Numbered from the stretch's first letter, positions 14,800 to 56,144 are shown. The stretch is 64,000 nt of DNA from Candidatus Omnitrophota bacterium (GCA_015233145.1 JADFYI010000004.1:68821-132820), one strand, 5' to 3'. Notes: generated by a model not told the origin, from the letters alone. Translations and numbers: made by a program.

Positions 14800-14824
14800 T
14801 ATTTCCTCCATCTATCCGTTTACA

Positions 14825-25415: not shown

Positions 25416-26270
25416 TTAAATCATATTGCAAAAACGGCATGGAAGCATCCGTGATTTCTTATTCTTACGGTATTCACGCGCCAAGGCCCCGTTATAAATA
25501 TCCAAAAGCGACCGATCGTTGGCATTGCCCAGGATATACTCTCCTTCCATATCCATACAGCAAAGAGCCACAAGCCCATTGGCTAAAACAACCATGTTTT
25601 TTAAACGCTGGCAATGGATATCCTTAAAACCTCTAAAACTAAAAATCCGCGAAATATAATTATATTTATACCCCACCTTGATCTCAGCCCCTGGAAAATT
25701 CTGACGACAAAAAACGCAAAAACTGTCATTATATATTTTATTTCCAACCTTATCTTCTTTACCATGCTCAACGGAAGCAACAATAATATTTTCCGCAAAT
25801 TTACGCTCGCTATTAAGCCTTAACACATTTTTAATATTAGCCACAACCCTCTTGAAATCCAATCCTACTCTCCTTTTATAATCCAAAGGCTCAAAACCAT
25901 TAAGACTAAAATTAATTAAACGAATATTCCTTATCCGGGACAACTTCTCTGCACGCTCTTCATCTAAAAGAAACCCATTGGTGAAAACAACAATCCCTGC
26001 AGCCGGAAGTTCATGATTAATAAGATCAAGCCGATCAAAAATTTTCTTATCAAGAAACATTTCCCCATTTGCAAACGGATGAACATTTTCAGGGTTAATC
26101 TCCTTAAGATCTTTCAGCAGCTTCAAAAAAAGCTCATCCGACATATCGGTCAAACCGCGCTTCATGTTTCGATGATGGCAAAACTCACACTTCGCATTGC
26201 AGCGATTGGTTGTTTCAATCTGTATCTCTAAAGGACGCTCAACCCGTTCAATCCTTTTCTTCCAAAACAT
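25416..26270 (-). CDS. radical SAM protein with a C-terminal SPASM/twitch-like Cys cluster
   Basis: ETTNRCNAKCEFC (CxxxCxxC). C-terminal Cys residues CQRL...LCCMD...PCRFC. The gene looks much more AT-rich than its neighbours. Confidence 0.75.
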   Translation of the reverse strand: MFWKKRIERVERPLEIQIETTNRCNAKCEFCHHRNMKRGLTDMSDELFLKLLKDLKEINPENVHPFANGEMFLDKKIFDRLDLINHELPAAGIVVFTNGFLLDEERAEKLSRIRNIRLINFSLNGFEPLDYKRRVGLDFKRVVANIKNVLRLNSERKFAENIIVASVEHGKEDKVGNKIYNDSFCVFCRQNFPGAEIKVGYKYNYISRIFSFRGFKDIHCQRLKNMVVLANGLVALCCMDMEGEYILGNANDRSLLDIYNGALAREYRKNKKSRMLPCRFCNMI

Positions 26271-30131: not shown

Positions 30132-30152
30132 AGAATTTTCCACCGTAAAATT

Positions 30153-31931
30153 TTACTGGTTAAAATGATAACTCGCCAGCCGCGAGTACAATTCTGAAGA
30201 ATTTAAAAGCTCCTCGTGAACGCCTTTTTGGACAATTTCACCGTTCTCCAAAACCAGTATGCAGTTAGCATGCCGGATGGTTGACAACCGGTGCGCAATG
30301 ACAATAACTGTCCGGTCTTTCATAAGGTTATCAAGGGCCGCCTGCACAAGATACTCAGACTCCGCATCAAGCGCGGAAGTGGCCTCATCCAAAAGAAGAA
30401 TCTTGGGGTTCTTTAAAATAGCCCTGGCAATGCAAAGCCTCTGCTTCTGCCCTCCGGAAAGTTTAAAACCCCTGTCGCCGATAACGGTATCAAGCCCTTT
30501 CGGCATTTTCTCAATAAATTCAAGGGCGAGCGCCTGGCGCGCGGCATCAAAAATCTCTTCATCCGTGGCGTCAAGCTTGCCGTACTGCAGGTTCGCCCGG
30601 ATCGTCTCATTAAAAAGAATCATGTCCTGTGTCACAAGGCCAATATGACTGCGCAAAGACAACAGCGTCACACCCTTGATGTCCTGGCTGTCAAAAAGGA
30701 TCCTTCCCTTGTCAGGGTCATAAAAACGAAGGATCATGTTAATAATCGTGGTTTTCCCGCATCCCGTCGGCCCCACAAGGGCCGTGGTTTTCCCGATTTC
30801 AAAATCATGGGAAAAATCCTTGATAATCCAGCGCTCTTCATCCTTGTTATAACGGAAGGAAATGTTTTCAAAACAAATGCTTTTCTTAGGTAAGACACAT
30901 TCTTTGGCATCAGGGGCATCAACAATTTTTAGTTTCCAGTCCAAGATAGCGTAAATGCGTTTGGATGACGCCAGGGCCTGCTGAATAATGCCGTACACGG
31001 CTGTTAATTTCTTGATGGGGCGGAAAATGCTGATCAGCGCGGCCACATATACGCCAAAAACGCCGAACGAAATGCTCCCTGACATCACACGCTTTCCGCC
31101 AAGCCAGAGCACCAGAACAAAGGCAATCGCCTGCATGACTTCTGAAGACGGGGAAAGCAAAAGCGCTCTTTTGTTGGCCTTCAAGAACGCGTGATAATAC
31201 CTCAAATTGGCCGTATCAAACCTTGTCATCTCATGGGTCTCACGCGAAAAGGCTTTAACAACTGATACGCCCTGGCTCGCCTCAGCCAAAACTGAATTAA
31301 GGTCGGCCATGGATTCCTGGGAATGGATGGACTGTTTCTTGACGGTTTTTCCGATCACGTGGATCAAAAGCCCGATGAGCGGCAGGGTTGCCAGGATCAC
31401 CAGGGTCATCCGCCAGTCAATGGAAAGCGCCACAACCGCAAAAAATATCGCGAGAAGCGTCTGATAAACAACATCCGTAATGCCATACGATATGGAATGG
31501 CCTAAAAAAGGCACGTCGTGCGTCACGCGCGACATAAGCTCGCCCTGGCGTTTCTGGCTGTAGAAATCATGGGAAAGTTTCTGATAATGCGCAAAAAGAT
31601 CCGAGCGAACGTCGGCAACTGTTTTTTGCGCCACAACGTTCATAAAATACCCCTGCATATAAAAGACAATCCCTTTAAGGATATAAAAGACAGGCGTAAA
31701 ACATATGATCCCGTAAAAAAGGGTCTGACGGTCAATGGTATTCACCCGCCCCGCCAAATCCATGACCCAGGGCGGCATCCCCGATGGAAGGACAATGAGC
31801 TTGTTGGTAAAAATACGGTCCACAATAGGCCCGATCGCGCCAAACTGCCCGCCCTCAAAAAGGGTTGAAAAAAGCATGCAGCCAATACCCAAAAAAAGAT
31901 ACTTCAGGTTGCGCCGCGACAAACTGATCAT
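30153..31931 (-). CDS. ABC exporter, fused permease/ATPase (MsbA/PglK-like)
   Basis: 592 aa. Six hydrophobic segments, then GPTGCGKTT, LSGGQKQR and ILLLDEATS. Confidence 0.85.
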   Translation of the reverse strand: MISLSRRNLKYLFLGIGCMLFSTLFEGGQFGAIGPIVDRIFTNKLIVLPSGMPPWVMDLAGRVNTIDRQTLFYGIICFTPVFYILKGIVFYMQGYFMNVVAQKTVADVRSDLFAHYQKLSHDFYSQKRQGELMSRVTHDVPFLGHSISYGITDVVYQTLLAIFFAVVALSIDWRMTLVILATLPLIGLLIHVIGKTVKKQSIHSQESMADLNSVLAEASQGVSVVKAFSRETHEMTRFDTANLRYYHAFLKANKRALLLSPSSEVMQAIAFVLVLWLGGKRVMSGSISFGVFGVYVAALISIFRPIKKLTAVYGIIQQALASSKRIYAILDWKLKIVDAPDAKECVLPKKSICFENISFRYNKDEERWIIKDFSHDFEIGKTTALVGPTGCGKTTIINMILRFYDPDKGRILFDSQDIKGVTLLSLRSHIGLVTQDMILFNETIRANLQYGKLDATDEEIFDAARQALALEFIEKMPKGLDTVIGDRGFKLSGGQKQRLCIARAILKNPKILLLDEATSALDAESEYLVQAALDNLMKDRTVIVIAHRLSTIRHANCILVLENGEIVQKGVHEELLNSSELYSRLASYHFNQ

Positions 31932-31944: not shown

Positions 31945-33123
31945 TTAATAGGAAGCCCCTTTGCTCTTTAAGAATTTTTGAACAACCTCAACCACATAAT
32001 CCAACTGCGACGGCTCAATGTCCTGGTGAATCCCGATATGCGTGCCGTGATTGCTGCAATACTCCGCCTCTGGAAAGTCGCCGAGCTTATACCCCAAAAA
32101 GGCATAGCTCGGACACTGGGTTGGCATGGCATAAAAAAGATTGCGCGAATCCACACCCTGGCTTTCAATGAAGGTCACAAATTCATCTTTTGTAAAATTA
32201 AGGCCTTCACGCAAAATCATGGAAAAAGCGTGCGGCCCGAGTTTTTCGTAAGGCTCTTGTTTCAGCGTAATAAAATATTTATCGAAAAGGCGGAATTTAT
32301 CGATCAGGTACAACATATTCCGACGGCGTTTTGCAAGGATGTCTGCGAAGATTTCAATGTTCCCGAGCCCGACAGCGGCTTCGATTTCATTCATCTTAGC
32401 GGAAAATCCAATGCGTTCAAAGGTAAATTTGCCTGTCATGCCGTGGTTGCGCAAAGACCGAAGGGCATCTGCTGTTTTTTCGCAATTGGTGATAATCATG
32501 CCGCCCTCGATCGTGGTCACGATATGCGCGGCATAAAGGCTGAAACAGGCCGTATCGCCCATCGCGCCGATCTTTTGCCCCTTATACTCTGCGCCGTGCG
32601 CTTCGGCCGCATCTTCAATCACTTTCAAATTGTGCTTTCTGGCAATACTTAAAATTTTATCCATTTCCGCGGGCTTGCCCATAAGGTGGACCGGCATAAT
32701 GGCACGGGTACGCTTTGTGATTTTTTCCTCAATTTTGTCCGGGTCAATATTCAAAGTGTCACGCTTGACGTCCACAAAGACCGGTGTAAGCCCGGCCTGA
32801 AAAACAGCGTTGCCGGTGGCCACAAACGAGAGCGCCGGAATAATGACCTCATCCCCGCGCCTGGCGCCAAAATCATAAAGCGCGGCGCATGCCAAAGCAT
32901 CCGCGTCGGTGCCGCTCGAAACCGCAACCCCGTATTTGACACCAAAGAGAGCCGCGAATTTGTCTTCAAACTCTTTAACGTATTTGCCCTTGGTCACCCA
33001 TTTTGTTTCAAGGGCCTCGTCAATAAGCTTGCGCGCCTTGGGCGTGATGGAAACCGTTCCAAAGGGGACTTTATAGCCTGATTTCCTGAATTCCTGGCCT
33101 GCTGATATTGTCATACGCTTCAC
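31945..33123 (-). CDS. DegT-fold PMP-dependent sugar 3-dehydratase candidate (ColD/E1-like, His replaces the PLP lysine)
   Basis: 392 aa. CFSLYAAHIVTTIEGG aligns with SFHPVK (pseC) and SFYPTK (21286 gene). His200 is codon CAT, the rc of 32524-32526. 4-nt overlap with the hddC-like gene. Confidence 0.55.
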   Translation of the reverse strand: MKRMTISAGQEFRKSGYKVPFGTVSITPKARKLIDEALETKWVTKGKYVKEFEDKFAALFGVKYGVAVSSGTDADALACAALYDFGARRGDEVIIPALSFVATGNAVFQAGLTPVFVDVKRDTLNIDPDKIEEKITKRTRAIMPVHLMGKPAEMDKILSIARKHNLKVIEDAAEAHGAEYKGQKIGAMGDTACFSLYAAHIVTTIEGGMIITNCEKTADALRSLRNHGMTGKFTFERIGFSAKMNEIEAAVGLGNIEIFADILAKRRRNMLYLIDKFRLFDKYFITLKQEPYEKLGPHAFSMILREGLNFTKDEFVTFIESQGVDSRNLFYAMPTQCPSYAFLGYKLGDFPEAEYCSNHGTHIGIHQDIEPSQLDYVVEVVQKFLKSKGASY

Positions 33124-33821
33124 TCAATCATTTCATTTAAATGTTTCTTGGCCCACTCAAATCGTTCGGGTGTTCCGATATCAATAAAAGGGGCATCCAC
33201 CTTATGACAAAAAAACCTATTGCCGATCAGCTTTGGAAAAAAGTCATACTCAATGGAAAATTTTGTGGGCGGCATCATATCAAAAACGCTTTTATTGAAA
33301 CAATAAACGCCGGCGCTGATATACTGCACGTCTTTTGTGACAAACTTTTCCTTAAACGCCGTGATTTCCTCTTTGTCGTTGGTGAGAATTGTCCCGAAAT
33401 CCTTGTTGCCTTCAATGCGCACACCGACCAACGTGGCAAGGGCATTTTTGGCCTGATGCCCACGCAAAAGCTCCTGATAATTGACGGGTGTAAAGCAATC
33501 ACCGTTCAGGCCAAACACGTAAGGTTTCTTGACGAGAGGCGCGGCATTCTTTAATGCGCCGCCGGTCCCCAAAGGCTCACGTTCAATCGAAAGATGCAGT
33601 TCAATATTCTTAAATTTTTCCTTATAATACGCCTCAAACGCCTCGGCCTTATACCCGGCACAAAGGATAATGCGCGCCGCGCCCTGTTTTATGAGGTAGC
33701 GAATCAGGAAGTCCAGGAAAGGCTCACCCTGCACAGAGGCCATCACCTTGGGCGTTTCACCCGTGACAGACCGAAGGCGCGTCCCCAGCCCTCCACACAA
33801 AATTAGAAAATCAGCATCCAT
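33120..33821 (-). CDS. hddC: sugar-1-phosphate nucleotidyltransferase, HddC-like (heptose-1-P guanylyltransferase candidate)
   Basis: LILCGGLGTRLR nucleotidyltransferase signature, 233 aa, adjacent to the GHMP heptose kinase-like gene. Confidence 0.55.
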   Translation of the reverse strand: MDADFLILCGGLGTRLRSVTGETPKVMASVQGEPFLDFLIRYLIKQGAARIILCAGYKAEAFEAYYKEKFKNIELHLSIEREPLGTGGALKNAAPLVKKPYVFGLNGDCFTPVNYQELLRGHQAKNALATLVGVRIEGNKDFGTILTNDKEEITAFKEKFVTKDVQYISAGVYCFNKSVFDMMPPTKFSIEYDFFPKLIGNRFFCHKVDAPFIDIGTPERFEWAKKHLNEMIE

Positions 33822-33826
33822 AAGTT

Positions 33827-34825
33827 TTACGCAACGACTCCGCTGTTAGGTTGATAAAAAATAATCTGGCTCCCCAGGGTTTCAAAATGGAACGGGATTT
33901 CCAAAAGCCCTTTTAACGCGCTTCTGACCAACGGCTTTTTTTCAGGCTCGGCATAAATCAGGATAAACCCGCCGCCGCCAGCGCCTAAAAGTTTTCCGCC
34001 CAAAGCCCCGGCCTTGAGGGCCTTGTCATAAATATCATCAATATAGGATGTCGTGATCTTGTCGGAAAGCGTGCGCTTGATCTGCCAGCTTTCACCAAGG
34101 AGCTTCCCAAAACGCAGGAGATCATTCGCGTTTAAGGCGCTGAGCGCCTGCGTCACCAAATGATACATGGCCGCAAGTTCCTGCTTTTTATTGGGAATAT
34201 TCTGTATTTGATGGACCGCAATCTGCGAGGCCGTACGCGCGAACCCGGTAAAAAAAATCATCATATGGTCTTGAAGCGCGGTTATCCTCTCTTTGGAAAG
34301 CGTGACAGGCCGCACGCCCAGCTGGCCGTCCCTGCCGAATTCAATATAATTCAACCCGCCATACGCGGCCAAAGCCTGGTCCTGGCAGCCGACATTTTCC
34401 TTGATCATGTTTTGTTCAATATGGATCGCTTCGCGAGCCATTTGCTCTTTGGTGGCCATGGTGCCTTTAAGCGCGTAAAGCGAATTCAAAAGGCCCACTG
34501 TAAACGAGGAACTCGAGCCCAGGCCCGCACGGGCCGGCAAATCACCATCGTGATGAATCTCAATGCCCTGGTGGATATTGAGAAACCGCAGAGTTTCACG
34601 CACCGATGGATGGTCAATCTCATCGACATTCTGGACATGCTCCATTTTGGAATAAATAATGCGCGATTTATGGTCAAAAAAAGGAGGAAGATAACGCGCC
34701 GTGATATAGCAATATTTGTCAATCGTTGTGGCCAAAACCGCGCCCGGGTTGTCATGAAACCACTGGGGATAATCGGTTCCTCCGCCAAAAAAAGACACAC
34801 GAAACGGGGTGCGGCTGATAATCAT
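33827..34825 (-). CDS. hddA: GHMP kinase, HddA-like (D-glycero-alpha-D-manno-heptose-7-P kinase candidate)
   Basis: SRTPFRVSFFGGGTDYP and GDLPARAGLGSSSSF (GHMP motif II). Confidence 0.6.
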   Translation of the reverse strand: MIISRTPFRVSFFGGGTDYPQWFHDNPGAVLATTIDKYCYITARYLPPFFDHKSRIIYSKMEHVQNVDEIDHPSVRETLRFLNIHQGIEIHHDGDLPARAGLGSSSSFTVGLLNSLYALKGTMATKEQMAREAIHIEQNMIKENVGCQDQALAAYGGLNYIEFGRDGQLGVRPVTLSKERITALQDHMMIFFTGFARTASQIAVHQIQNIPNKKQELAAMYHLVTQALSALNANDLLRFGKLLGESWQIKRTLSDKITTSYIDDIYDKALKAGALGGKLLGAGGGGFILIYAEPEKKPLVRSALKGLLEIPFHFETLGSQIIFYQPNSGVVA

Positions 34826-36066
34826 ACCTTCTCCCTTATTTTGACCTTAAGCATATCTTGGATCTCATCCACGACAACGCTTCCAAATTTTGAACCCATG
34901 AAAGACAAATACTTTCCATCCGAATAATATTCGTTAAAGGCATTGTCCCGAAACCGCAGCACGTCCAATCCGCTGAGATGCTTTGTCGGCACGGGCTTGA
35001 AACGCGGACTCATTTGTGAAAACTCCTCCCCTGTCTGGGGCATGTCAATCCCGCGGGATTTCATGTCTTCATAAAGCTGGCTTCCGGGATATGCGGTCAC
35101 GCAATAAAAGTTAGAATACTCGCACAAAAGTTCACGGCTCAGGTCAAAGGTGGCGCGCATGGTATCCAAATTGTCATCCCAGAATCCAAACATGTAATTA
35201 CCAATAATATGGATGCCCGCGTCTTTTGTCATCCTGATGACATCACGGATTTTCGCATTATCAAAACGGCCTTTCATAATATCTTTGCGGATATTCTCAT
35301 CACCGGATTCAATGCCATAGGCCAGCCATAAAATACCGGCGGAACGCAGCTTCTTTAAAAGCGCAGCATCAACCGTATCTATCCGCGCGTAGGCCCAAAT
35401 ATTGATCTCGCTCCCCAGTCCGCTTGCTTTTAAAAGCTCTAAAACAGCATGGACGCCCTTGTTATTGATCGCAAAAAGCTCATCCATCATCTTGAAATTG
35501 GTAATCCCCTTGTCAACAAGCCCGCGGACATCATCAAGAAGCAGGCGCGGTTCCCGCTGAGTATAGTCTGACCTGTAAAAATCTTTCACGCAACAAAACT
35601 CACAGGAAAACGGGCACGAAATACTTGAAAAGACAGCGCCGTAAGACTTGTCTTTCCGGCCCCACGAGTGCCAGTTATGCGCGCGATAAGACTTAACCGG
35701 CACCAGGCTCCAGTCCGGCGGGGCCATCTCAACAGGATTAAACACAAGGTGGTTATAAACATCCACCGGAAGCCTTAACGCGGTCACAATAAGATTACGC
35801 AGGTTTTCAGCAGCCTCGGTCTGCTGGATATGAGCCGAAGGATGCGAACCAATGGCCAAAACCACCACACGCTCCGCCGCCAGTTCCTTAAGCCGCACAA
35901 GCAATCCCGCGCCGTCAAGGCCTTCGGCCTCCATATCCACTATTTTTGCGCCTGGAAACTTCTGGGCAAAAAGCACAAGCCAGATCGGCGGCTCAATGGC
36001 GGAAAGATGCACCACCCGGCCGTACTGCTTTCTTTTCTCATTAGGTTTTACCAAAACAACAGACAT
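34822..36066 (-). CDS. B12-binding (class B) radical SAM enzyme
   Basis: The N-terminal about 110 aa resemble a cobalamin-binding Rossmann-like domain. Followed by SSISCPFSCEFCCV (CxxxCxxC), 414 aa in total. Confidence 0.7.
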   Translation of the reverse strand: MSVVLVKPNEKRKQYGRVVHLSAIEPPIWLVLFAQKFPGAKIVDMEAEGLDGAGLLVRLKELAAERVVVLAIGSHPSAHIQQTEAAENLRNLIVTALRLPVDVYNHLVFNPVEMAPPDWSLVPVKSYRAHNWHSWGRKDKSYGAVFSSISCPFSCEFCCVKDFYRSDYTQREPRLLLDDVRGLVDKGITNFKMMDELFAINNKGVHAVLELLKASGLGSEINIWAYARIDTVDAALLKKLRSAGILWLAYGIESGDENIRKDIMKGRFDNAKIRDVIRMTKDAGIHIIGNYMFGFWDDNLDTMRATFDLSRELLCEYSNFYCVTAYPGSQLYEDMKSRGIDMPQTGEEFSQMSPRFKPVPTKHLSGLDVLRFRDNAFNEYYSDGKYLSFMGSKFGSVVVDEIQDMLKVKIREKV

Positions 36067-36072: not shown

Positions 36073-37005
36073 TTAAACATTAGCGTACTGATTGCGTTTT
36101 AAAATTTGATAAGTCTTTACCAATTCCCTGATTCCAGAAGATAACGACATGTCCGGCTTAAACCCTGTCTTTTCAATTTTGTCATTGGAAACGATATAAT
36201 CACGCTTATCCGGGTCTTCGCCGACAGCCGCTTCCACGAAATAAAAATCCGGGATCTGCTTTTTGATCTCTTCGCACAGTTCCTTTTTGCTCAAATTGGC
36301 ATCGCTTAACCCCACGTTATAAGGCTCGTTTTTCATCTTTTCAAAATTGTTCAAAGAATGGATAAAGGCCTTGGCCACATCGCGCGTGTGGATAAAATTA
36401 CGCTTGAAATGCGCCTCAAAAAGGATCACAAAACGGTCATACACCGCGCGGTAAACAAAATCATTGACCAACAAATCAAGCCTCATGCGCGGGCTTGCGC
36501 CAAAAGCCGTGGCCAGGCGCAGGGTAATGCCGTGTCCGCTGTCCAATACAATTTTCTCCGCGTCACACTTGAGCCTCCCATAGACAGAAATCGGCCTTAA
36601 CGGCGTTTCCTCTGTGCAAAATTTCCCCTTTTCACCGACACCGTATCCGCTGTTGGTCGTCGGAAAAATAACCGGCTGGCTCTTTGAGGAAAAATCGACA
36701 GCCATTTTGATGGCATCCACAAGGATCGTTTGCGCGGCAATAGGGTCTTTGGCGCATAAAGGAGCACCCGTAAGACAGGCCAAAGGGAAAAGCGCATCAG
36801 ACTCTTTAACGAGCTTTTCAACAATTTTCTTATCCCTGGCATCACCCCGCACAATCGTCAGTTTCGGGTTGTGGCAAATATCCAAAAGCGGCGTCTGGTT
36901 ATACATAAAATTATCCAAAACCGCAACCTCATGCCCGGCGTCCAAAAGGCGAGGCACCATCACAGACCCCAAATAACCGGCGCCGCCTGTCACTAAAATC
37001 TTCAT
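36073..37005 (-). CDS. NAD-dependent extended SDR epimerase/dehydratase/reductase
   Basis: ILVTGGAGYLGS and YGRLK (YxxxK). Confidence 0.75.
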   Translation of the reverse strand: MKILVTGGAGYLGSVMVPRLLDAGHEVAVLDNFMYNQTPLLDICHNPKLTIVRGDARDKKIVEKLVKESDALFPLACLTGAPLCAKDPIAAQTILVDAIKMAVDFSSKSQPVIFPTTNSGYGVGEKGKFCTEETPLRPISVYGRLKCDAEKIVLDSGHGITLRLATAFGASPRMRLDLLVNDFVYRAVYDRFVILFEAHFKRNFIHTRDVAKAFIHSLNNFEKMKNEPYNVGLSDANLSKKELCEEIKKQIPDFYFVEAAVGEDPDKRDYIVSNDKIEKTGFKPDMSLSSGIRELVKTYQILKRNQYANV

Positions 37006-37022: not shown

Positions 37023-37997
37023 TTAAGGCAAATTAAATAAACTTCTCTTCACAACAAATGTTTGCTCCTCAAGCCCTGCTTCACAGGTGGCTGAAATCCC
37101 CTCGCGAAGGCCGGTCGGGGCATTCCATCCCAGGGATTTAATGCGGGAACTGTCCAAAAGCTTGCGCATGACGCCATCAGGCCTTGTTTTATCCCAGGTT
37201 ATTTGTCCCCGATATCCGACAATGGAGGCAATCACTGCAGCCAATTCCCCGATTTCCACATCAATGCCGGTGCCGATATTAATAAGCTCCGGGGAATGAT
37301 ACCTCTCCAGAAGAAAAAGGCAGGCCTCCGTAAGGTCATCGCCGAAAATAAATTCCCGCCGCGGCTTGCCGCTGCCCCACAACTCAACATGGCGCGTCCC
37401 CATTTTGGCAGCCTTGCGGAGTTTGCCGATCAAAGCGCCCATGACATGGGCTTCTTCAAGGTCGCGCTCAGGGGCCGGGCCATAAACTGTCGCTGGTACC
37501 GCTGAAATAGCAGGAAACCCGTACTGCTTGAAGTACGCCTGGCACATCACCACTCCCGCCGCCTTAGCCATGGAATACGGCTCGCTTATTTTCTCCATGG
37601 TCCCTGTTAAAAAATATTCCTCTTTGATGGGCTGCGGGCAATCCTGGGGATAAACGCAGGAGGCGGCCAAAAATAACAGTTTTTTAACTCCCACACGGTA
37701 AGAAAAATCAATCACATTATTTTGCGCCTGAAGGTTTTCAAACATAAACTCAGCCCCGTGAGCCTGGTTGGCCGCAATGCCGCCGGCACGGACTGAAGAA
37801 AGGATCACAAACTCCGGGCGCTCCCTGTCCATAAACGCACGCAGGGCCTTGCCGTCCAAAGGATTTAAACTGAGCTCCGTCGAGGAAAGCACGGATGAAA
37901 ATCCCCGACGGTAAAGCCCGCGGACTAAAGACATTTCAATCGCGTCGGCATGGCCGACAATAAGTATTTTCGACTTTTTGACGATTCCTGCGCGCAT
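37023..37997 (-). CDS. GDP-L-fucose synthase (Fcl)/ColC-like SDR with an atypical dinucleotide motif
   Basis: Collinear with E. coli Fcl as recalled: AASCVYP, YSMAKAAG, WGSGKPRREF and DKTRPDGVMRKLLD. The N-terminal GxxGxxG position reads GHADAIE. Confidence 0.6.
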   Translation of the reverse strand: MRAGIVKKSKILIVGHADAIEMSLVRGLYRRGFSSVLSSTELSLNPLDGKALRAFMDRERPEFVILSSVRAGGIAANQAHGAEFMFENLQAQNNVIDFSYRVGVKKLLFLAASCVYPQDCPQPIKEEYFLTGTMEKISEPYSMAKAAGVVMCQAYFKQYGFPAISAVPATVYGPAPERDLEEAHVMGALIGKLRKAAKMGTRHVELWGSGKPRREFIFGDDLTEACLFLLERYHSPELINIGTGIDVEIGELAAVIASIVGYRGQITWDKTRPDGVMRKLLDSSRIKSLGWNAPTGLREGISATCEAGLEEQTFVVKRSLFNLP

Positions 37998-37999: not shown

Positions 38000-38536
38000 T
38001 TACTTCTCGTTATAATAATTGCCGTCTTCAATCAGAAGCGTGGCACGGTTATCTTCCCGCTCAAAAGCGCGCTGATAGGCTGGAAAAATATCCTGCGGCT
38101 CGGAAAGTTCAACAACCTCAATCCAGTCAAAAAGCTTACGGAAAGACTCTGCAAAATTCCCCACATGCTGATGCCCGGGATGCACTGGTTTATAAGGCCC
38201 TGTGGCCACGCGGATAATAACTTTAGGAGTGACCCGCCCCTGGCTCATGGCCGGGAATTTGTCGAGCATGTTGGACATGTCTCCCGTTGCCAGCAATAAA
38301 AAATTCTGGCGCGGATAAACAGAGACCGGAACATAGCCGGCCAGCGCCAGGCCTATGGAAAACTGCATCTGGAAACTTTCATTGACCGGGAATTCAACCG
38401 CACGGTCTTTGGGCACGTCCCGCAGGGTCTGGTACATAAATGTGCCCGGCACCGCTGCGGTCTGGCCGACAAAAATCGTTTTGGGCTGTGTGGCCAGCCA
38501 TTCCATGGTCCGTTTAAGCTCGTCGAAATATTTCAT
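38000..38536 (-). CDS. ThDP-enzyme beta-like subunit (Pyr domain only, E1-beta-like)
   Basis: 178 aa. EFPVNESFQMQFSIGLALAG contains the conserved ThDP-activating Glu context. Lacks the C-terminal transketolase domain of E1-beta. Confidence 0.6.
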   Translation of the reverse strand: MKYFDELKRTMEWLATQPKTIFVGQTAAVPGTFMYQTLRDVPKDRAVEFPVNESFQMQFSIGLALAGYVPVSVYPRQNFLLLATGDMSNMLDKFPAMSQGRVTPKVIIRVATGPYKPVHPGHQHVGNFAESFRKLFDWIEVVELSEPQDIFPAYQRAFEREDNRATLLIEDGNYYNEK

Positions 38537-38537
38537 A

Positions 38538-39161
38538 TTAAAATTTTATGAGTTTTCCAAGCCCGGAATGCGGCCAGCCGTTCTTGTATTGAAAATAAAC
38601 AATTTTTTTCTCAAACCGCGTCCCCTTAAACCAGGGTTCTTCAGAGCCCCATGTTTCACGGGTCTGGGTCATAACACTGAGTCCGTTGTCAGACACGATA
38701 AATTTTGCCGGTAAATCAAAATTAACAGCATACTTGACCGCCTCATGAAAAATTCCGGTCTCCGACGACATGTCACCGCAAAAAAGAAACACGCGCCCCT
38801 TTTTGCCCTCATGCTTAAGCGCCCAGGCGACACCCGTGGCAACACCCATGAGGCTCCCGACAATCCCTGAGCAGAAAATCTTGTGTTCTGGAAAACAAAG
38901 CGCAATGCTGCGTCCGTCCATGATCGCGGCTAACACTTCTTCCCGCGCAACGCCTTTGAGCAGGCAAAGCTCATGCGAATCCCAAAAACCAAAAAGATAA
39001 TCGTCAGCACCGATATTGTATTCTTGAAAAATACGAATAAGCTCTTCTTCACGCCCGGAACGAAGATGCACCGGCGCTTTGATGAGCCCCTGGGCAAAAA
39101 TTCCGGCGACTTCATTCTCAAAGCCTTCCAGGTCTTTTTTGGTTAACGCTGTCATGGCCAT
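38538..39161 (-). CDS. ThDP-enzyme alpha-like subunit (PP domain, E1-alpha-like, minimal)
   Basis: 207 aa. GDMSSETGIFHEAVKYAVNFDLPAKFIVSDNG fits the GDG-X(25-30)-N ThDP/Mg motif (GDM-X26-DN). Confidence 0.6.
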   Translation of the reverse strand: MAMTALTKKDLEGFENEVAGIFAQGLIKAPVHLRSGREEELIRIFQEYNIGADDYLFGFWDSHELCLLKGVAREEVLAAIMDGRSIALCFPEHKIFCSGIVGSLMGVATGVAWALKHEGKKGRVFLFCGDMSSETGIFHEAVKYAVNFDLPAKFIVSDNGLSVMTQTRETWGSEEPWFKGTRFEKKIVYFQYKNGWPHSGLGKLIKF

Positions 39162-40102
39162 TATAAATTCTCTTTAAACCACTCAATTGTCTTGGCAAGG
39201 CCTTCCCGTAACGAAACTTTTGGCTCCCAGCCTAACTTGGCCCTGGCTATGGAAATATCAGGTTTACGCTGTTTAGGATCATCCTGAGGAAACGGCTCGT
39301 AAACAAACTTGCTCCTGCTGCCCGTCAGTTCCAGCACAATTTTGGCAAATTCAATAATGGTAAATTCCCCGGGATTGCCGATATTCACAGGGCCACTCAG
39401 GTTCGAAAACATGAGCCGCAAAATCCCTTTGGCCTCATCGTCAACATAACAAAAGGAGCGTGTCTGCTTTCCATCGCCATAAATCGTCAACGGGAGCCCC
39501 TTAAGCGCCTGATAAATAAAATTCGGCACCACACGCCCGTCATGAAGATTCATGCGGGGGCCGTAAGTATTAAAAATACGCACGACTTTGGTGTCCACCT
39601 TAAATGTACGCCGATACGCAAATGTTACTGCTTCGGCATAACGCTTGGCCTCATCATAAACACTGCGCGGGCCAATGGGATTAACGTTGCCCCAATAGGT
39701 TTCTTTTTGGGGATGCTCCTTAGGGTCGCCGTAGACTTCTGAAGTCGATGTTAAAAGAAACACGGCTTTTTTTGCTTTCGCGATTTCAAGCATGTGATGG
39801 GTACCTTGCGAGCCCACCAAAAGCGTTTCCACAGGATGGTTCAGGTAATCCACCGGGCTCGCCGGAGACGCGCAATGCATCACATAATCAATCTTTCCGG
39901 GAATCTTAAAAGGCCTTGAGACATCCTGTTTGATCAGCGTAAAATTCTTGTCTTTCAAAAGATGCGCGATATTGGTTTTTTTGCCTGTAATAAAATTATC
40001 AACGCAAAAAATCCTGTGCCCCTGCTCCATAAGCTGGTCGCACATGTGGCTTGGTAAAAATCCTGCCCCGCCGCTCATGAGCGTTACTTTCTTTCTTGTC
40101 AT
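39161..40102 (-). CDS. UDP-glucuronate decarboxylase (UXS-like SDR)
   Basis: 313 aa. [23 protein letters not shown] and YDEAKR. The third Gly of the Rossmann motif is Pro. Confidence 0.75.
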
Positions 40103-40114: not shown

Positions 40115-41416
40115 TTATAACTTGATAATTTTCTCTGAAACCGTTTTATGATAAATATTCTTAAGATCAAAAATCTGCCTCGCGTTCTTTAAAACAAGCT
40201 TATAGTCCACGTTCGTGTGATCGACAGCAATGACAACGCAATCCTGATCCGCAATGTTTTTGGGGGTCAACGGTGCGCCTTCCATCTCCAGCCCTTCCAG
40301 ATGAAGAAACGGCACCAAAGGATCATAAAACGAAACCACAGCCCCGCGTCTTTTCAAGATATCAATCAGCCTTAACGACGGCGACTTTCGGAGGTCCTTA
40401 ACGTCTTTTTTGTATGTCACGCCCATAATGAGCACCCTGGCGCCTTTAAGGATTTTACCGCGGGCGCTGAGCATATCTTTCACTCGAGACACAACGTATT
40501 CCGGCATGGCGGAATTGATATCCGCGGAAAGTTTGATAAAACGCGACGCACACCCCTTTTCCTTGGCCTTCCAGTAAAGATAAATAGGGTCTTCCGGGAT
40601 GCAATGGCCGCCCACGCCAAGCCCGGGGTAAAAGGGCATAAATCCGAAAGGCTTTGTTTTGGCTGCGTCGATAACCTCCCAGACATCAATGTCAAACTTA
40701 TGGCACATCATGGCCGCTTCATTGATCCAGCCAATATTCACAAGCCTGAAGGTATTTTCAAGAAGTTTGCACATCTCAGCCGCTCGGGGCGAAGAAACAA
40801 CGTGGATGTCCTTGATAATTTTCCCATAAAGGGCTTTGGCCAGGATACTGCACGCCGGGGTGACACCGCCGACAACCTTGGGGATCTGTGTCACGGTATG
40901 CGTGGCATTGCCCGGGTCAATCCTTTCGGGGGAAAATGCCAGATAAAAATCCCTGCCGACCTTGAGTCCCCCTCTTTCAAGCTCGGGCGCGATCAACTCC
41001 TCAGTCGTGCCAGGGTAGGTTGTGCTCTCGAGAATAACAAGGGTGCCTTTGGAAAGATTTTCCGCAACCGAACGGACCGCGGAAAGAATAAATGAAATAT
41101 CCGGAGTATACTTTTTTTTGATCGGAGTCGGGACGCAAATAATCACAGCCCTGCAGTTTTTGATACAGCCGAAATCCGTTGTCGGTAAAAAAGCCCTGTG
41201 GGATACAGGCTCGACGATTTCAGCGTCTGTCACATCAGTAATATAACTCGTTCCGGCCAGAAGCCTGTCAATGCGGTCGGTGTTGTTGTCGATTCCGTAA
41301 ACACGGAAACCTTTATTGGCAAACCCCAACGCCAGAGGAAGGCCGACATAGCCAAGCCCGATGACGGCGACAGATATTTCGTTTTTTTTGATTTTTGAAA
41401 AAAGTTTCTTATACAT
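40115..41416 (-). CDS. nucleotide-sugar dehydrogenase (UDP-GlcNAc/ManNAc 6-dehydrogenase-like)
   Basis: 433 aa. VIGLGYVGLPLA and GVGGHCIPEDP (catalytic Cys). Confidence 0.75.
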   Translation of the reverse strand: MYKKLFSKIKKNEISVAVIGLGYVGLPLALGFANKGFRVYGIDNNTDRIDRLLAGTSYITDVTDAEIVEPVSHRAFLPTTDFGCIKNCRAVIICVPTPIKKKYTPDISFILSAVRSVAENLSKGTLVILESTTYPGTTEELIAPELERGGLKVGRDFYLAFSPERIDPGNATHTVTQIPKVVGGVTPACSILAKALYGKIIKDIHVVSSPRAAEMCKLLENTFRLVNIGWINEAAMMCHKFDIDVWEVIDAAKTKPFGFMPFYPGLGVGGHCIPEDPIYLYWKAKEKGCASRFIKLSADINSAMPEYVVSRVKDMLSARGKILKGARVLIMGVTYKKDVKDLRKSPSLRLIDILKRRGAVVSFYDPLVPFLHLEGLEMEGAPLTPKNIADQDCVVIAVDHTNVDYKLVLKNARQIFDLKNIYHKTVSEKIIKL

Positions 41417-42731
41417 GCCCGCGGCCTATCCCGTAATATTCAAATCCCAGATCACCCAATGCCTTCATGTCGAGGAAATTACGGCCGTCAAAAATCACGG
41501 CCTGCCGCATGGCATCGCGAACCCTGGCCCAGTCAGCCGCCTTAAACTCTTCCCACTCCGTCAAAAGAAGAAGGCAATCCGCGCCTTTCGCGGCGGCATA
41601 AGGGTCAGAACAAAACTTAATCCCTTTGAGCATTTTTTTAGCATTAGGCACGGCCTGCGGGTCATAGGCCTGAATGCAGGCGCCTTCATTTTGAAGGGCT
41701 TCGATGATCGTAACCGACGCGGCACTGCGCATGTCATCCGTGTTCGACTTAAACGCCAATCCCCAGACTGCAATGGTTTTATCTTTGAGGATCCACAATT
41801 TATCTTCCACAAGGCGGATAAAAGATTGCTTTTGCTCTTCATTCACCTCACGCACGCTTTTTAACAATTTAAAGTCATAGCCGCTCTTCTCAGCCAGGCG
41901 GACAAAGGCATCCACATCCTTAGGAAAACAGCTTCCGCCGTAACCGACACCCGCGTTCAAAAAAGCCCGGCCGATGCGCTTGTCATAGCCCATGCCCTCG
42001 GCCACCTGCTCGACATCCGCGCCCACCCGCTCACAAATCTGGGAAACCGCATTGATGAATGAAATTTTTGTCGCTAAAAAAGAATTCGACGCGTGCTTGA
42101 TGATCTCGGCGGTCGCCACATTCGTCACCAGCATCTTGGCCTTCAAAGGCTTGTAAATCTCACGCAAAAGCCTTTCCGCACGCTTTGATTCAACACCGAT
42201 AACAATGCGGTCTGGATTCATGAAATCCTTGATCGCCGACCCTTCCCGAAGAAATTCAGGGTTAGAGGCAACATCGAATTCAAGCGTTATCTTGTTCCCG
42301 TTTTTAAACTTATTGGGAAGATTGAGCTTAACCGTGCGTTCAATACGATTTCCGGTCTGGGCAGGGACCGTGGACTTTTCCACCAGGAGTTTATACGAAT
42401 CCATGTTGCGCGCAATTTCCCGGGTCACATTTTCAATGTACGTGAGGTCGGCATCGCCGTTCTTTTTCGACGGAGTCCCCACCGCGATAAAAATAACAGA
42501 AGCTTTCTTCGATGATTCTGCGATAGAGCTTGAAAAAGTAATTCTTCCGGACTTGCGGTATTTCTCCAGAAGCTCACCTAAGCCTGGCTCATAAATAGGA
42601 ATCCCGCCGGCTTTAAGAACCTTGATCTTCTCCTCGTTATTATCCACACAAATAACGTTGTGGCCGATGTGTGCCAGGCATACCCCTGTCACAAGCCCGA
42701 CGTATCCGGACCCGATGATAGCTATATCCAT
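41409..42731 (-). CDS. ugd: UDP-glucose 6-dehydrogenase
   Basis: ORF trimmed to ATG 42731 (MDIAIIGSGYVGLVTG, AGGA Shine-Dalgarno upstream). GYGGSCFPKD catalytic Cys. Confidence 0.85.
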   Translation of the reverse strand: MDIAIIGSGYVGLVTGVCLAHIGHNVICVDNNEEKIKVLKAGGIPIYEPGLGELLEKYRKSGRITFSSSIAESSKKASVIFIAVGTPSKKNGDADLTYIENVTREIARNMDSYKLLVEKSTVPAQTGNRIERTVKLNLPNKFKNGNKITLEFDVASNPEFLREGSAIKDFMNPDRIVIGVESKRAERLLREIYKPLKAKMLVTNVATAEIIKHASNSFLATKISFINAVSQICERVGADVEQVAEGMGYDKRIGRAFLNAGVGYGGSCFPKDVDAFVRLAEKSGYDFKLLKSVREVNEEQKQSFIRLVEDKLWILKDKTIAVWGLAFKSNTDDMRSAASVTIIEALQNEGACIQAYDPQAVPNAKKMLKGIKFCSDPYAAAKGADCLLLLTEWEEFKAADWARVRDAMRQAVIFDGRNFLDMKALGDLGFEYYGIGRGHV

Positions 42732-42750
42732 TTTTCTTCCTTCAGTCTTT

Positions 42751-44976
42751 TTAAGGCTGCGGTTGCGAGCCAACTTCTCTCTTGCTGAAACTTGTGCTTC
42801 CATTAAATTTTACGGATGGGAACGCCTTGATACGGAAAATAAACCAGAATTCTGTGCCTGATTTTTCCGGTTCTTTCTTGTTGTTGATCGCGAATTCAAC
42901 TTCCCAGGAATGGAGGTCGCGCACAAAAGAATACTGCTGTTCCTGCCAATGGCCCGTATCCACATTCCAGCGGTCGTAAACGACTGTCCGCCATTTGGGA
43001 TTGAATTTGTACGACACCTGTGTTGTGACAAGGTCGTCATCCTTGTGCGCATACCGGCGGCCGATATCAAATTCCCATTTTTTGTTGTCTTTCAAATACA
43101 AGTCAAAATTGGCGGTCTGCAGATGCCTGGTGTCATTATTGTAATCCATGTCATTATGAAACGTGACATACTGGTTCGGGTAAAGTTCATTCGTCCACTT
43201 CATATCCCCCCAGCTGCCAGGCGTTGGGTTGTCTTTCAGCCGAAACTCGGTTGTGAGAGACGAACGCGCAAGATCAACGCTTTTCCCGTCACGCTTGGTC
43301 TGAAGCGTGTTGTCGAGCCCCAGGGCAAAACGGTCTATGGTATCGCGGGCGTCCATAGAGTCAAAACCATAAAGTTTCTCAGACCCGAGCGTTGGGTGAT
43401 GCTGGTACAGATAGCCCACCGTCGGCGTTATGACATGGCGGAGCTGGTTCACCTCAATGCCATACTTATTAAAAGTGACGTCATACACGCGGTAAAACTT
43501 TGTGCTCACATCCATCCCGGTACGGAAAATCCCGCGCACGGAATCATTGTGCGAGCTGTCCAATGTGTTGGAATAATACGTTTGTTCGGTCCCGATATAA
43601 GGCCGCATCTCCAGGAAAGAAACTTTAAAAGGACGCGAAAGTTCATTGTCCGTATCAATGCGAATCGTATGATGCGTGTTGTCTGAAACCGAAGGATCTT
43701 TTTGCCTTAAATTCGAAATCGTATTGTTGCTTTTGACATAAAAACCCGTGTCAGAAATCGGCTGGTTTGTCAGGCTGTAATTAAATTCCGGTAAGCGCTC
43801 GACCGGAGCCTCAAAATTGTTAACACGCAGGTCAGCCCGCAAGCTTGCCGTGGCATTGGCCATCGAATGAGTCAAAAGGGCATACGTAGGAGGATTCTGG
43901 TCCTGCTGGTATTCTCTCCTGAAATACTCCTTAATAAAATCTTTATCCGACACTTTGTAATACTGGGAAATAAAACTTGTCTGCGGGTCAATGTCCCATT
44001 TATGGCGCCATTCAATGCGATAGCGCTCACCCGTTGTCGGCGTTGCATTGGTCTGGCCGATGGTGTTGCCGATCAGCTGATGCTCATTAATATAATATGT
44101 TTTGACAAGACCATGTCCCCCGTTTTCCCAGGCATTATAATCGGCATCCACGCCATAACCGACGCCTTTGCGGCCGTAAAGGTCCAGATGATACGTGGTA
44201 TCAATCCAATCCGTCACCATCATATGCGTGCTCATAAGAACATACGCGCCTAAATCTTTTTGATAACCGGGAACAACCCTGAGATGCGGGCGGTCATCAT
44301 TCAAATACTGGACATACTTGGGCATATACATGACCGGCATACCCCCCAAATACATGACAGAGTTGTGCGCAATCGCCCGGTCATACGGATAAACCTCGAT
44401 TTTGCGCGACTTAATGCGGTATTCCGGATTATCGTAATCGCTCGTGGAAATCCACCCGTCGGAAAGGACATAATAATCATCATGGAATTTTGTAATGGAC
44501 GCAGCCTTGCCGAAATAAGGGTTGGCCATGATCCGGGCATTGGTAAATTCGCCGCGCTTGGTTTCAAAATTATAAAACGCCTTATCCGCCCAGACCGTGC
44601 CTTTGGGCGAAACAAGGACAATATTGCCAATGGCATGGGCTTCTTTGCGGTCGCGATAAAATTCAAGCTTGTCACAAAAAAGTGTTGAGTCGTTTTGCTT
44701 TAAGACAACATTGCCGCTGGCCACAAACTTGGATTCTTCCGCCTTAAATTCAATGGAGTCTCCGGTTAATTCCACAGGGGCATTCTTGTCATAGGGGGCA
44801 TTTTTGTCATGCGGGACGTCTTTGGCCGGGGCTTTATCATCTAAAGGGGATGATGATGGCGCTGCCTGCGCCGAATTTTCTTGTGCCTGTGCCCCGGAAG
44901 CAGAAAAAATCAGTGCTGCCAAAGCCACACACCAGAAAACAACAAAGGCCCTCATCACTTGTTTGGTATCTTTCAT
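42751..44976 (-). CDS. lptD: LPS-assembly outer-membrane protein LptD
   Basis: 741 aa. Signal peptide ending AQAQ, an OstA-like N-terminal domain (ELTGDSIEFK...ASGNVVL...A.GNIVL) and a large beta-barrel-type C-terminus ending in an aromatic-rich strand. Confidence 0.8.
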   Translation of the reverse strand: MKDTKQVMRAFVVFWCVALAALIFSASGAQAQENSAQAAPSSSPLDDKAPAKDVPHDKNAPYDKNAPVELTGDSIEFKAEESKFVASGNVVLKQNDSTLFCDKLEFYRDRKEAHAIGNIVLVSPKGTVWADKAFYNFETKRGEFTNARIMANPYFGKAASITKFHDDYYVLSDGWISTSDYDNPEYRIKSRKIEVYPYDRAIAHNSVMYLGGMPVMYMPKYVQYLNDDRPHLRVVPGYQKDLGAYVLMSTHMMVTDWIDTTYHLDLYGRKGVGYGVDADYNAWENGGHGLVKTYYINEHQLIGNTIGQTNATPTTGERYRIEWRHKWDIDPQTSFISQYYKVSDKDFIKEYFRREYQQDQNPPTYALLTHSMANATASLRADLRVNNFEAPVERLPEFNYSLTNQPISDTGFYVKSNNTISNLRQKDPSVSDNTHHTIRIDTDNELSRPFKVSFLEMRPYIGTEQTYYSNTLDSSHNDSVRGIFRTGMDVSTKFYRVYDVTFNKYGIEVNQLRHVITPTVGYLYQHHPTLGSEKLYGFDSMDARDTIDRFALGLDNTLQTKRDGKSVDLARSSLTTEFRLKDNPTPGSWGDMKWTNELYPNQYVTFHNDMDYNNDTRHLQTANFDLYLKDNKKWEFDIGRRYAHKDDDLVTTQVSYKFNPKWRTVVYDRWNVDTGHWQEQQYSFVRDLHSWEVEFAINNKKEPEKSGTEFWFIFRIKAFPSVKFNGSTSFSKREVGSQPQP

Positions 44977-55895: not shown

Positions 55896-56144
55896 TTCCG
55901 TTGCCTTCGGCAACAAACTACGCCGGTTAGACGAATCCGCAAGAAGAATAACATTAAATATAAATATAAGTCAATGTAAGGAGATAAATAAGAGGGAAAT
56001 TATTTATATCTCTAAGTAGCTGGGAAATAACAACTTAATAGATATTTAACAATGAATAGGAAAAGATTTTCTTGTTTTCTTGATAATTTCACTAGAAAAC
56101 AACGAAAAATTTCGTGGTGAAGGTGGAAACAACCTTCTAGGACA

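Follow-up and report, generated by a model that had tools for sequence, protein, structure and literature searches.

In the biosynthesis of yersiniose, a C3-dehydrase acts first and is followed by YerE (PMC4753412), which transfers activated acetaldehyde derived from pyruvate onto CDP-3,6-dideoxy-4-keto-glucose (PMC12247030). Two-carbon branches are likewise added to keto sugars by pairs of proteins that resemble the two subunits, alpha and beta, found in the E1 component of pyruvate dehydrogenase (PDH)—AviB1/B2, Pau11/12, the aldgamycin-pathway enzyme and KbDH-alpha/beta—and that serve the biosynthesis of avilamycin, paulomycin, aldgamycin and kibdelomycin (PMC12247030, PMC4425429). According to a 2025 review, such E1-like branching is confined to specialised metabolites, whereas branching in lipopolysaccharide is attributed to the YerE-like enzymes, which belong to another superfamily (PMC12247030). 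Here, we describe a pair of short genes, alpha and beta, in a stretch of 64,000 nucleotides from a Candidatus Omnitrophota bacterium (GCA_015233145.1 JADFYI010000004.1:68821-132820; the whole stretch is referred to as the window). On balance, the pair probably encodes a minimal, E1-derived and thiamine diphosphate (ThDP)-dependent carboligase that would add a pyruvate-derived two-carbon branch to C4 of a GDP-4-keto(-3-deoxy)heptose.

The two genes are tightly packed (Table 1). Alpha begins within the stop codon of the UXS-like gene before it, the overlap reading TAATG, and spacers of 1 and 2 nt separate alpha from beta and beta from the Fcl-like gene, respectively; alpha and beta are translationally coupled. 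HQL16_03390 is an exact database match to the window. Since orthologues (alpha 68-82%, beta 67-87% identity) share the gene order in ~65 other species, the pair does not represent chance open reading frames (ORFs). Both cofactor signatures that a first-pass annotation had picked out are present: alpha carries GDM-X26-DN, fitting the ThDP/Mg motif GDG-X25-30-N, at residues 129-159 (G129-D-M-X26-D158-N159, window 38685-38777), and beta has the activating glutamate, Glu53 (window 38378-38380), within FPVNESFQMQF. Among 45 diverse homologues of alpha, H32, G129 and N159 are invariant and D130, H63 and H198 near-invariant, and in 20 diverse homologues of beta the invariant residues are E48, E53, R76, Q123, H124 and E170.

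Alpha matches Pfam E1_dh at 1.7e-12, over profile positions 32-178 of 300 only, and a weak partial match to TPP_enzyme_C (9.7e-5) lies beneath this stronger one. A family profile built from the 45 homologues aligned with residues 44-215 of the 365 residues of human PDH E1-alpha (1e-23), with weaker matches to branched-chain E1 (2e-14), split transketolase (1e-8) and DXS (5e-8). The AlphaFold model of alpha (pLDDT 95.9) likewise had a PDH E1-alpha chain, 3EXE_A, as its best Foldseek match, with TM scores of 0.80 (query) and 0.47 (target). The C-terminal tail of ~35 amino acids (aa) is unrelated to E1-alpha and bears a near-invariant Y-x-Y...P-H-x-G signature that includes His198. Because the E1-alpha match is limited to part of the target and is followed by this family-specific tail, alpha consists of the core diphosphate-binding (PP) domain plus the tail. 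Beta, in turn, matches Pfam Transket_pyr over its full length (8.5e-7; residues 8-170 to profile positions 10-167 of 174), and a family profile built from its 20 homologues covers residues 4-178 of the 324 residues of E1-beta (7.6e-12; E1-beta matches range from 4e-13, for 1IK6, to 4e-11). As these matches end with the pyrimidine-binding (PYR) part, beta has no transketolase-C domain, just as the first-pass annotation had it. No TPP_enzyme_N or central domain was found in the pair with Pfam. Taken by its domains, the pair is thus predicted to be a minimal E1-derived ThDP enzyme with one PP and one PYR domain only.

That these two domains constitute the whole enzyme follows from the existence of natural alpha-beta fusions of ~400 aa, namely P0163, P0215, P0254, SSM2_198 of phage S-SM2, gp190 of phage P-TIM68 and the protein family phrog_34187. 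The latter, 405 positions long and of unknown function, is matched by alpha over positions 4-200 (1.7e-34) and by beta over positions 237-405 (2.6e-19).

The shortness of both subunits had also been noted before, and it can now be assigned to the absence of the C-terminal half of E1-alpha and of the transketolase-C domain of E1-beta. In E1 structures, the C-domain of beta binds E2, and the alpha region missing here carries the loops for reductive acylation of lipoamide. The NCBIfam E1 models score far under their curated cut-offs (62.8 versus 393.85 bits and 26.7 versus 321 bits), and among the 52 window ORFs with a length of 90 aa or more, not one encodes an E2 (2-oxoacid_dh), lipoyl or E3 domain, in line with the earlier statement that neither E2 nor E3 is encoded there. 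Because the pair lacks half of alpha as well as the domain that binds E2, E2 and E3 are not nearby and PP-PYR fusions occur, it is firmly supported that the pair is not part of a dehydrogenase complex, as had been proposed before.

What the enzyme may do instead is suggested by the genes that accompany it. Neighbouring genes were clustered over 140 viral and metagenomic loci and compared with the genes of the window, and partners were counted in 141 loci of at least 12 kb, comprising 40 Omnitrophota-type, 75 viral and 26 metagenomic ones. Beta accompanies alpha in 138 of the 141. A short-chain dehydrogenase/reductase (SDR) encoded close to beta has 6VO6/6VO8, an entry titled 'Cj1427', as its top Foldseek match (57% identity, TM 0.87), and copies with 45-63% identity stand beside alpha/beta in 36 of the 40 Omnitrophota-type, 15 of the 26 metagenomic and 41 of the 75 viral loci. 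As an orthologue of Cj1427, this SDR would make a 4-keto sugar.

A further recurrent partner is a member of the DegT family. In the DegT fold, replacement of the lysine that binds pyridoxal 5'-phosphate (PLP) by histidine marks sugar C3-dehydratases such as ColD and CDP-hexulose 3-dehydrase E1. The best PDB match of the window protein is GDP-perosamine synthase 3BN1 (2.5e-70), and the lysine of 'FGNKIITTGEGG' in 3BN1 aligns with His200 in 'YAAHIVTTIEGG' of the window protein; in the chain of entry 3DR4, the same lysine is replaced by alanine, and the other two DegT genes of the window keep it. Histidine occupies this position in 64 of the 71 DegT homologues adjoining alpha/beta, with copies spanning Omnitrophota, Pelagibacteraceae and Verrucomicrobiota as well as viral loci and those in which the enzyme is fused. 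The His-variant DegT protein is therefore a probable GDP-4-keto-sugar C3-dehydratase. A role as transaminase of a new acetyl branch, as in kibdelomycin biosynthesis, was considered for it and set aside because of this exchange of the Schiff-base lysine.

The sugar itself is assigned as a heptose by homology, from several genes. The best PDB matches of the GHMP kinase are the heptose kinases 3K85, 4USK and 4N3O (1e-37 to 6e-32), and copies with 46-57% identity accompany alpha/beta in Pelagibacteraceae and Verrucomicrobiota; the smallest conserved unit, an operon of Pelagibacteraceae, comprises alpha, beta, GHMP kinase, His-variant DegT and Cj1427-like SDR. Viral loci often encode an RmlC-fold epimerase whose top eight PDB matches are the GDP-D-glycero-4-keto-D-lyxo-heptose 3- and 3,5-epimerases of Campylobacter jejuni (~1e-34, against ~1e-22 for the dTDP RmlC enzymes). 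Of 67 viral loci, 41 have the gene for this homologue of the 4-keto-heptose epimerases directly upstream of alpha, and in 28 of the 67 a Cj1427-like gene starts no more than 2.6 kb upstream of alpha. The composition of the viral loci also bears on the order of events: of the 75, 74 have beta, 41 the Cj1427-like gene and 13 the His-variant DegT, but only one has the kinase and none the nucleotidyltransferase. Since these loci hold 4-keto-sugar enzymes and practically no genes for activation, alpha/beta would act after nucleotide activation. The simplest reading is that these phages take the nucleotide heptose of their host and encode the tailoring steps only, alpha/beta among them.

What is observed is which domains the pair contains, its cofactor motifs and conservation, the fusions and the genes around it; from this we infer donor, acceptor, attack site and product as follows. 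The Cj1427 orthologue would oxidise C4 of a GDP-heptose, the His-variant DegT would then take off the C3 hydroxyl, and alpha/beta would use the GDP-4-keto(-3-deoxy)heptose so formed. In the latter step, Glu53 of beta would activate ThDP held at the GDM-X26-DN/Mg site of alpha, and the ThDP ylide would attack pyruvate with release of CO2. Because lipoyl-E2 cannot dock, the resulting hydroxyethyl-ThDP carbanion would go to the C4 ketone of the nucleotide sugar, giving a 4-C-acetyl tertiary alcohol, i.e. a branched nine-carbon sugar. Further tailoring would fall to the Fcl-like SDR and the radical-SAM protein, and glycosyltransferases would place the sugar on an envelope glycan. The first-pass annotation had already suggested a ketosugar carboligase; this part stands as the best reading, though it is reached via the Cj1427 orthologue, the His-variant DegT and the viral epimerase, evidence that the annotation had not used.

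A possible cofactor loop may also be noted between the DegT protein (window 31945-33123) and the Cj1427-like SDR (window 36073-37005). The C3-dehydratase of C. jejuni converts the Cj1427 product into GDP-D-glycero-3-deoxy-4-keto-heptose in vitro and turns glutamate into 2-oxoglutarate, the oxidant that Cj1427-type dehydrogenases require (PMC10680097). As 2-oxoglutarate is made by one step and used by the other, a C3-dehydratase and a Cj1427-type enzyme could feed each other.

Several points weigh against the proposed carboligase. The region of E1-alpha that normally helps to form the active-site channel is absent from alpha, and pyruvate as the donor is a guess from similarity to PDH E1. The GDP-heptose supply set of the window is limited to the HddA-like and HddC-like enzymes, with scores under the curated cut-offs; GmhA and GmhB were found neither in the window nor in the insertions of related Omnitrophota clusters, which encode carbamoyltransferase, GT2, GDSL and TPR proteins, and may be encoded in another part of the genome. 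Cyanophage loci are devoid of a Cj1427-like gene, and because His-variant DegT is found in so few of the viral loci, 3-deoxygenation would not be obligatory. Finally, one alpha homologue, P0229, is fused to an APH-type kinase, and isomerases of the SIS/GmhA type, kinases and phosphatases are frequent neighbours, all of which would be compatible, too, with action ahead of nucleotide activation.

Among the alternatives, the same enzyme could act on the same class of acceptor with another donor—hydroxypyruvate, 2-oxobutyrate, 2-oxoglutarate or glyoxylate, leaving a hydroxyacetyl, propionyl, succinyl-type or formyl branch. YerE-like enzymes span donors from C2 to C8, and transketolases have been proposed for hydroxyacetyl branches (PMC12247030); 2-oxoglutarate and glutamate already cycle via Cj1427 and the C3-dehydratase (PMC10680097), and the sequence does not fix the donor. 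However, PDH E1 is the closest solved relative, ahead of branched-chain E1, and the E1-like enzymes known to branch sugars seem confined to pyruvate-derived C2 units, so we regard a different donor as unlikely, if not strikingly so. A more far-reaching alternative moves alpha/beta to a point before nucleotide activation, where a DXS- or transketolase-like reaction would join a 2-oxo acid or ketol unit to an aldose phosphate, and the unusual ketose phosphate would then be processed by a GmhA-type isomerase, a kinase, a phosphatase and a nucleotidyltransferase, as in the lincosamide octose route. It would account for the recurrence of SIS_2 isomerases (L074, L075, L078 and the cyanophages), of kinases from three families (GHMP, PfkB and APH) and of HAD phosphatases, as well as for the kinase-alpha fusion and the kinase gene directly after beta in the Pelagibacteraceae operon. 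It is nevertheless distinctly unlikely: the viral loci keep beta and the Cj1427-like gene with next to no kinase or nucleotidyltransferase, the tightest neighbours act on GDP-4-keto sugars, the cluster of the window has neither isomerase nor phosphatase, and the fold is of the E1 type rather than the transketolase or DXS type.

If no C-C bond were made at all, the pair could be a plain non-oxidative decarboxylase of a sugar-borne alpha-keto acid or 3-deoxy-2-ulosonic acid, which might, for example, cut the side chain of a GDP-hept-6-ulosuronic acid to an aldehyde. Alpha-keto acids are the native substrates of E1, and two genes of the nucleotide-sugar 6-dehydrogenase type lie just upstream in Omnitrophota; yet these dehydrogenases are not kept with alpha/beta outside this phylum, and no recurrent partner makes the keto acid needed, whereas the recurrent partners make a C4 ketone, which renders a decarboxylase highly improbable. 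Barely credible, in our view, are a regular E1 that serves a pyruvate, acetoin or branched-chain complex with E2 and E3 encoded elsewhere, or a split decarboxylase of the ComDE/Ppd type. Automatic annotations as 'pyruvate dehydrogenase E1 alpha' or 'acetoin oxidoreductase subunit alpha' speak for the former, but the loss of the E2-binding domain and of half of alpha, together with the low E1 scores given above, speak against it. As for the latter, the subunit sizes resemble those of ComD and ComE. One outcome that the first-pass annotation had named as speaking against a carboligase was sulfopyruvate or phosphonopyruvate decarboxylase as the top match; no match to either family was obtained with Pfam or NCBIfam, and all significant matches are of the E1, transketolase or DXS type. 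Moreover, the domains are ordered PP then PYR (E1_dh, Transket_pyr) instead of PYR then PP as in the decarboxylases, and no phosphoenolpyruvate mutase or coenzyme-M genes are found in the window.

Table 1. The alpha/beta pair and the genes around it in the window
Feature	Coordinates	Strand	Size and supporting match
Alpha subunit (PP, diphosphate-binding)	38538-39161	-	207 aa; minimal E1-alpha-like; Pfam E1_dh
Beta subunit (PYR, pyrimidine-binding only)	38000-38536	-	178 aa; E1-beta-like; Pfam Transket_pyr
Cj1427-like SDR (putative GDP-heptose C4-dehydrogenase orthologue)	36073-37005	-	phmmer PDB 6VO6, 2.7e-121
DegT-family protein, probable GDP-4-keto-sugar C3-dehydratase, ColD type	31945-33123	-	392 aa; His200 (32524-32526) replaces PLP lysine
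GHMP kinase, HddA-like (putative heptose phosphate anomeric kinase)	33827-34825	-	332 aa; NCBIfam HddA 1.6e-41, under curated cut-off
Nucleotidyltransferase, HddC/ManC-like, predicted GDP-sugar forming	33120-33821	-	233 aa; NCBIfam HddC 3.8e-46, mannose-1-P guanylyltransferase 3.4e-45, both under curated cut-offs
Fcl-like SDR, GDP-fucose-synthase family (epimerase and/or C4-reductase type)	37023-37997	-	324 aa; NCBIfam GDP-L-fucose synthase 1.8e-97, under cut-off
Radical-SAM protein, B12-binding type (methylase or diol-dehydratase-like)	34822-36066	-	414 aa; Pfam Radical_SAM 4.4e-15
UXS-like SDR	39161-40102	-	Pfam, NCBIfam
Nucleotide-sugar dehydrogenase	40115-41416	-	Pfam, NCBIfam
UDP-glucose dehydrogenase	41409-42803	-	Pfam, NCBIfam
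MsbA-like ABC exporter	30153-31931	-	Pfam
GT4 glycosyltransferase	28986-30143	-	Pfam

The two SDR genes that had been reported to flank the pair, UXS-like on one side and Fcl-like on the other, are indeed there, although the partners that inform most about the pair are the Cj1427 orthologue, the His-variant DegT and the HddA/HddC-like activation enzymes. In the PDB, the Fcl-like SDR matches 7LL6 (1e-70) and C. jejuni entries of the heptose C4-reductase type (1e-59 to 1e-66), and its Ser/Cys/Tyr/Lys/His catalytic residues align with those of GDP-fucose synthase. Its N-terminal dinucleotide-binding motif (window 37929-37958, minus strand), however, reads V-G-H-A-D-A-I-E and not GxxGxxG, with G-H-x-D-x-x-E kept in 56 Omnitrophota orthologues; the protein may bind its cofactor differently or have an altered role, perhaps as an epimerase only. 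The radical-SAM protein, like the Fcl-like SDR a recurrent partner of alpha/beta, scores ~1e-18 to 1e-20 against NCBIfam HpnJ, BchE and AprD4; its homologues occupy the position directly upstream of alpha in a number of metagenomic loci and adjoin the alpha-beta fusion in L074 and L075. The UXS-like SDR has the motif STSEVYG, which we take to be the standard UXS catalytic motif. It stands beside alpha together with the two dehydrogenases in 38 of the 40 Omnitrophota-type and in none of the 101 viral or metagenomic loci; UXS as the supplier of a UDP-4-keto-pentose acceptor was set aside, being tied to alpha/beta in Omnitrophota only and having the standard motif. At the other end of the cluster, the exporter or the GT4 gene follows DegT in many Omnitrophota loci, and both proteins probably use or export the product.

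In a scan limited to one genome for each species, 72 loci were recovered, nearly all from Omnitrophota and with alpha identities of 68-82%. Across ~65 Omnitrophota species, the gene order is the same, namely ROK, LptD, UDP-glucose dehydrogenase (UGDH), NDP-sugar dehydrogenase, UXS, alpha, beta, Fcl-like, SDR, radical SAM, GHMP kinase, nucleotidyltransferase and DegT. The position of this sugar operon directly downstream of lptD (window 42751-44976, minus strand; loci L001-L067) is thus kept. Identities within the operon (alpha 68-82%, SDR 67-87%) are unusually high for a surface-sugar cluster, which suggests a core envelope component and not a variable O-antigen.

The family extends well beyond this phylum. 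HMMER, run exhaustively over representatives at 50% identity, yielded 1,371 clusters with E <= 1e-3 and 291 at 1e-10, most being 195-225 aa long, and a profile search of 90% clusters gave at least 7,994 at E <= 1e-10 among 8,000 scored candidates; the family comprises at least 8,000 proteins. Pelagibacteraceae and Verrucomicrobiota have members as well, and the viral contigs that carry one number in the hundreds. Scans with a tighter alpha alignment than the 45-sequence set confirmed at least 578 stretches among the 600 listed for IMG/VR, on contigs of ~6 to 335 kb, and at least 552 among the 600 listed for metagenomes. The viral assignments of IMG/VR are predictions; firm evidence for phage carriage comes from the cultured T4-like cyanophages S-SM2 (SSM2_198) and P-TIM68 (gp190), which have the fused form, annotated as 'transketolase central region-containing protein', in sugar clusters with a zinc alcohol dehydrogenase, a carbohydrate kinase, a heptose-1-phosphate adenylyltransferase-like gene, a phosphoheptose isomerase, nucleotide-sugar epimerases and glycosyltransferases. 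A fold search of BFVD gave nothing significant, the top match being a 192-aa 'transketolase' of Campylobacter phage CP21 (E 1e-3). The huge size of the family with its phage-borne copies, like the restriction of the UXS neighbour to Omnitrophota, is absent from the first-pass annotation. In databases, homologues are labelled 'pyruvate dehydrogenase E1 alpha', 'acetoin oxidoreductase subunit alpha' or 'hypothetical', so that at least 8,000 family proteins probably bear wrong labels. In the literature collection searched, no paper was found that describes the family, and none relevant to heptose, thiamine diphosphate and branching together.

Some alpha homologues are embedded in longer architectures: P0187 contains an intein, P0154 has a LAGLIDADG/Myb-containing extension, and in P0229 (L073:1124-2782) the APH-type kinase-alpha fusion is followed by a beta gene. 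In ~10 loci (e.g. L096, L098, L102, L103, L111 and L130), the short pair has a second ThDP system beside it, a split transketolase of Transketolase_N (268 aa) plus Transket_pyr/Transketolase_C (306 aa), and in L076 (7355-9068) a longer E1-like pair whose beta keeps transketolase-C. Two ThDP systems in one sugar cluster suggest two different C-C bond-forming steps.

Taken together, the pair could be the founding example of a very large family comprising the smallest known ThDP enzymes of the E1/transketolase lineage (PP plus PYR, ~385 aa in total or ~400 aa when fused), which would branch GDP-4-keto-heptoses to C4-branched nine-carbon sugars new to glycans. Such a sugar would be a conserved envelope component of Omnitrophota, and phages of marine and fresh waters, such as cyanophages S-SM2 and P-TIM68, would produce it too during infection—a broad proposal that we put forward tentatively. 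If true, it would add a third, minimal architecture for ThDP-dependent C-branching of sugars, beside the YerE-like flavoenzymes of lipopolysaccharide and the full-length E1-like pairs of actinomycete antibiotics, and would be a measure of how little of E1 suffices for ThDP carboligation. It would also mean a new branched, heptose-derived sugar across an uncultivated phylum and encoded by many phages, and would point to a surface structure so far overlooked that bears on how phages and hosts recognise each other. There is demand for small, ketone-accepting ThDP carboligases as biocatalysts that make tertiary alcohols, and the upstream GDP-heptose substrates can be made with published C. jejuni enzymes (PMC10680097).

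The window and the related loci hold further features of note. Carbamoyltransferase genes (Carbam_trans_N/C) recur in Omnitrophota (L022, L028, L031, L060) and in 33 viral or metagenomic loci (e.g. L196:58-1722), a hint that the sugar or the glycan might carry O-carbamoyl groups. Alpha is flanked in viral-type loci by a family of ~428-aa proteins, with 186 copies in 82 loci, often two to three in each (e.g. L083:14318-15604, L100, L120, L131), for which no Pfam or PHROG match was obtained; it occurs with further families of 139, 288 and 478 aa, the last with only weak radical-SAM-like PHROG matches. On the minus strand of the window, positions 777-6695 encode a second nucleotide-sugar pathway—a xylose-isomerase-like TIM barrel, a CMP-sugar-type cytidylyltransferase (CTP_transf_3), an aldo/keto reductase, a class-III aminotransferase, a Lys-containing DegT and a PseB-like dehydratase—that looks like a route to a pseudaminic- or legionaminic-acid-like sugar. 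The same strand carries a 487-aa protein with a weak O-antigen-ligase-like (Wzy_C) region and a spermine-synthase-like domain (13348-14811), a radical-SAM/SPASM protein amid glycosyltransferases (25416-26270) and a 1,411-aa ORF without a Pfam match (51681-55916).

How, then, does the locus compare with described systems? Its setting is close to the GDP-heptose pathway of C. jejuni, with its Cj1427 C4-dehydrogenase, Cj1430-type epimerases, Cj1428-type C4-reductases and HS:5 C3-dehydratase, to which the Cj1427 orthologue, the HddA/HddC-like enzymes, the Fcl-like SDR, the His-variant DegT and the viral heptose-type epimerases correspond (PMC10680097). The C. jejuni pathway, however, has no ThDP enzyme and its 4-keto intermediates are simply reduced, whereas the locus described here has both a ThDP enzyme and a radical-SAM protein inserted.

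Among ThDP enzymes, ComDE and Ppd are small and split as well, of similar total size and made of PYR and PP only. They belong to another superfamily, with the opposite domain order, and neither a significant match to them nor phosphonate or coenzyme-M genes nearby link them to the pair. Split transketolases, some of which have been put forward as the source of the hydroxyacetyl branches of miharamycin and amipurimycin, share the superfamily, the two-gene form and the location in sugar clusters (PMC12247030), but keep the C-terminal domain, measure ~270 + 300 aa and have Transketolase_N instead of E1_dh. The E1 enzymes of the pyruvate and branched-chain complexes (alpha2beta2) are closest in sequence and fold, with the same ThDP/Mg motif and activating glutamate; the pair differs from them in having neither the E2-binding C-domain, nor the C-terminal region of alpha, nor E2 and E3 nearby, and in scoring far under the curated cut-offs.

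In terms of chemistry, a parallel is the YerE route, in which a nucleotide sugar is likewise turned into a 4-keto sugar, deoxygenated at C3 with pyridoxamine 5'-phosphate (PMP) or PLP and branched at C4 with ThDP to give sugars of lipopolysaccharide. YerE-like enzymes, which account for the branching of yersiniose, erwiniose and caryophyllose, are single-chain, flavin-containing members of the acetolactate-synthase-like decarboxylase superfamily that act on CDP-hexoses, whereas alpha/beta is of the E1/transketolase lineage and stands in a GDP-heptose context. The pair was also set against the AviB, Pau and KbDH enzymes by their descriptions, lengths and gene setting. Like it, each of these consists of two homologues of E1-alpha and E1-beta inside a keto-sugar cluster without E2 or E3, and transfer of a C2 unit from pyruvate to a sugar ketone has been proposed for them and, in the case of KbDH, shown on model ketones (PMC12247030, PMC4425429). 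Yet enzymes of this type are full-length (Pau11 325 aa, Pau12 345 aa; PMC4425429) as opposed to 207 + 178 aa here, and they serve dTDP-deoxyhexose antibiotic clusters as opposed to GDP-heptose clusters for envelope or phage glycans in Omnitrophota, Pelagibacteraceae and phages. We therefore infer that the pair would work like the AviB/Pau/KbDH type, albeit with a reduced architecture, in a GDP-heptose setting and with a different distribution.

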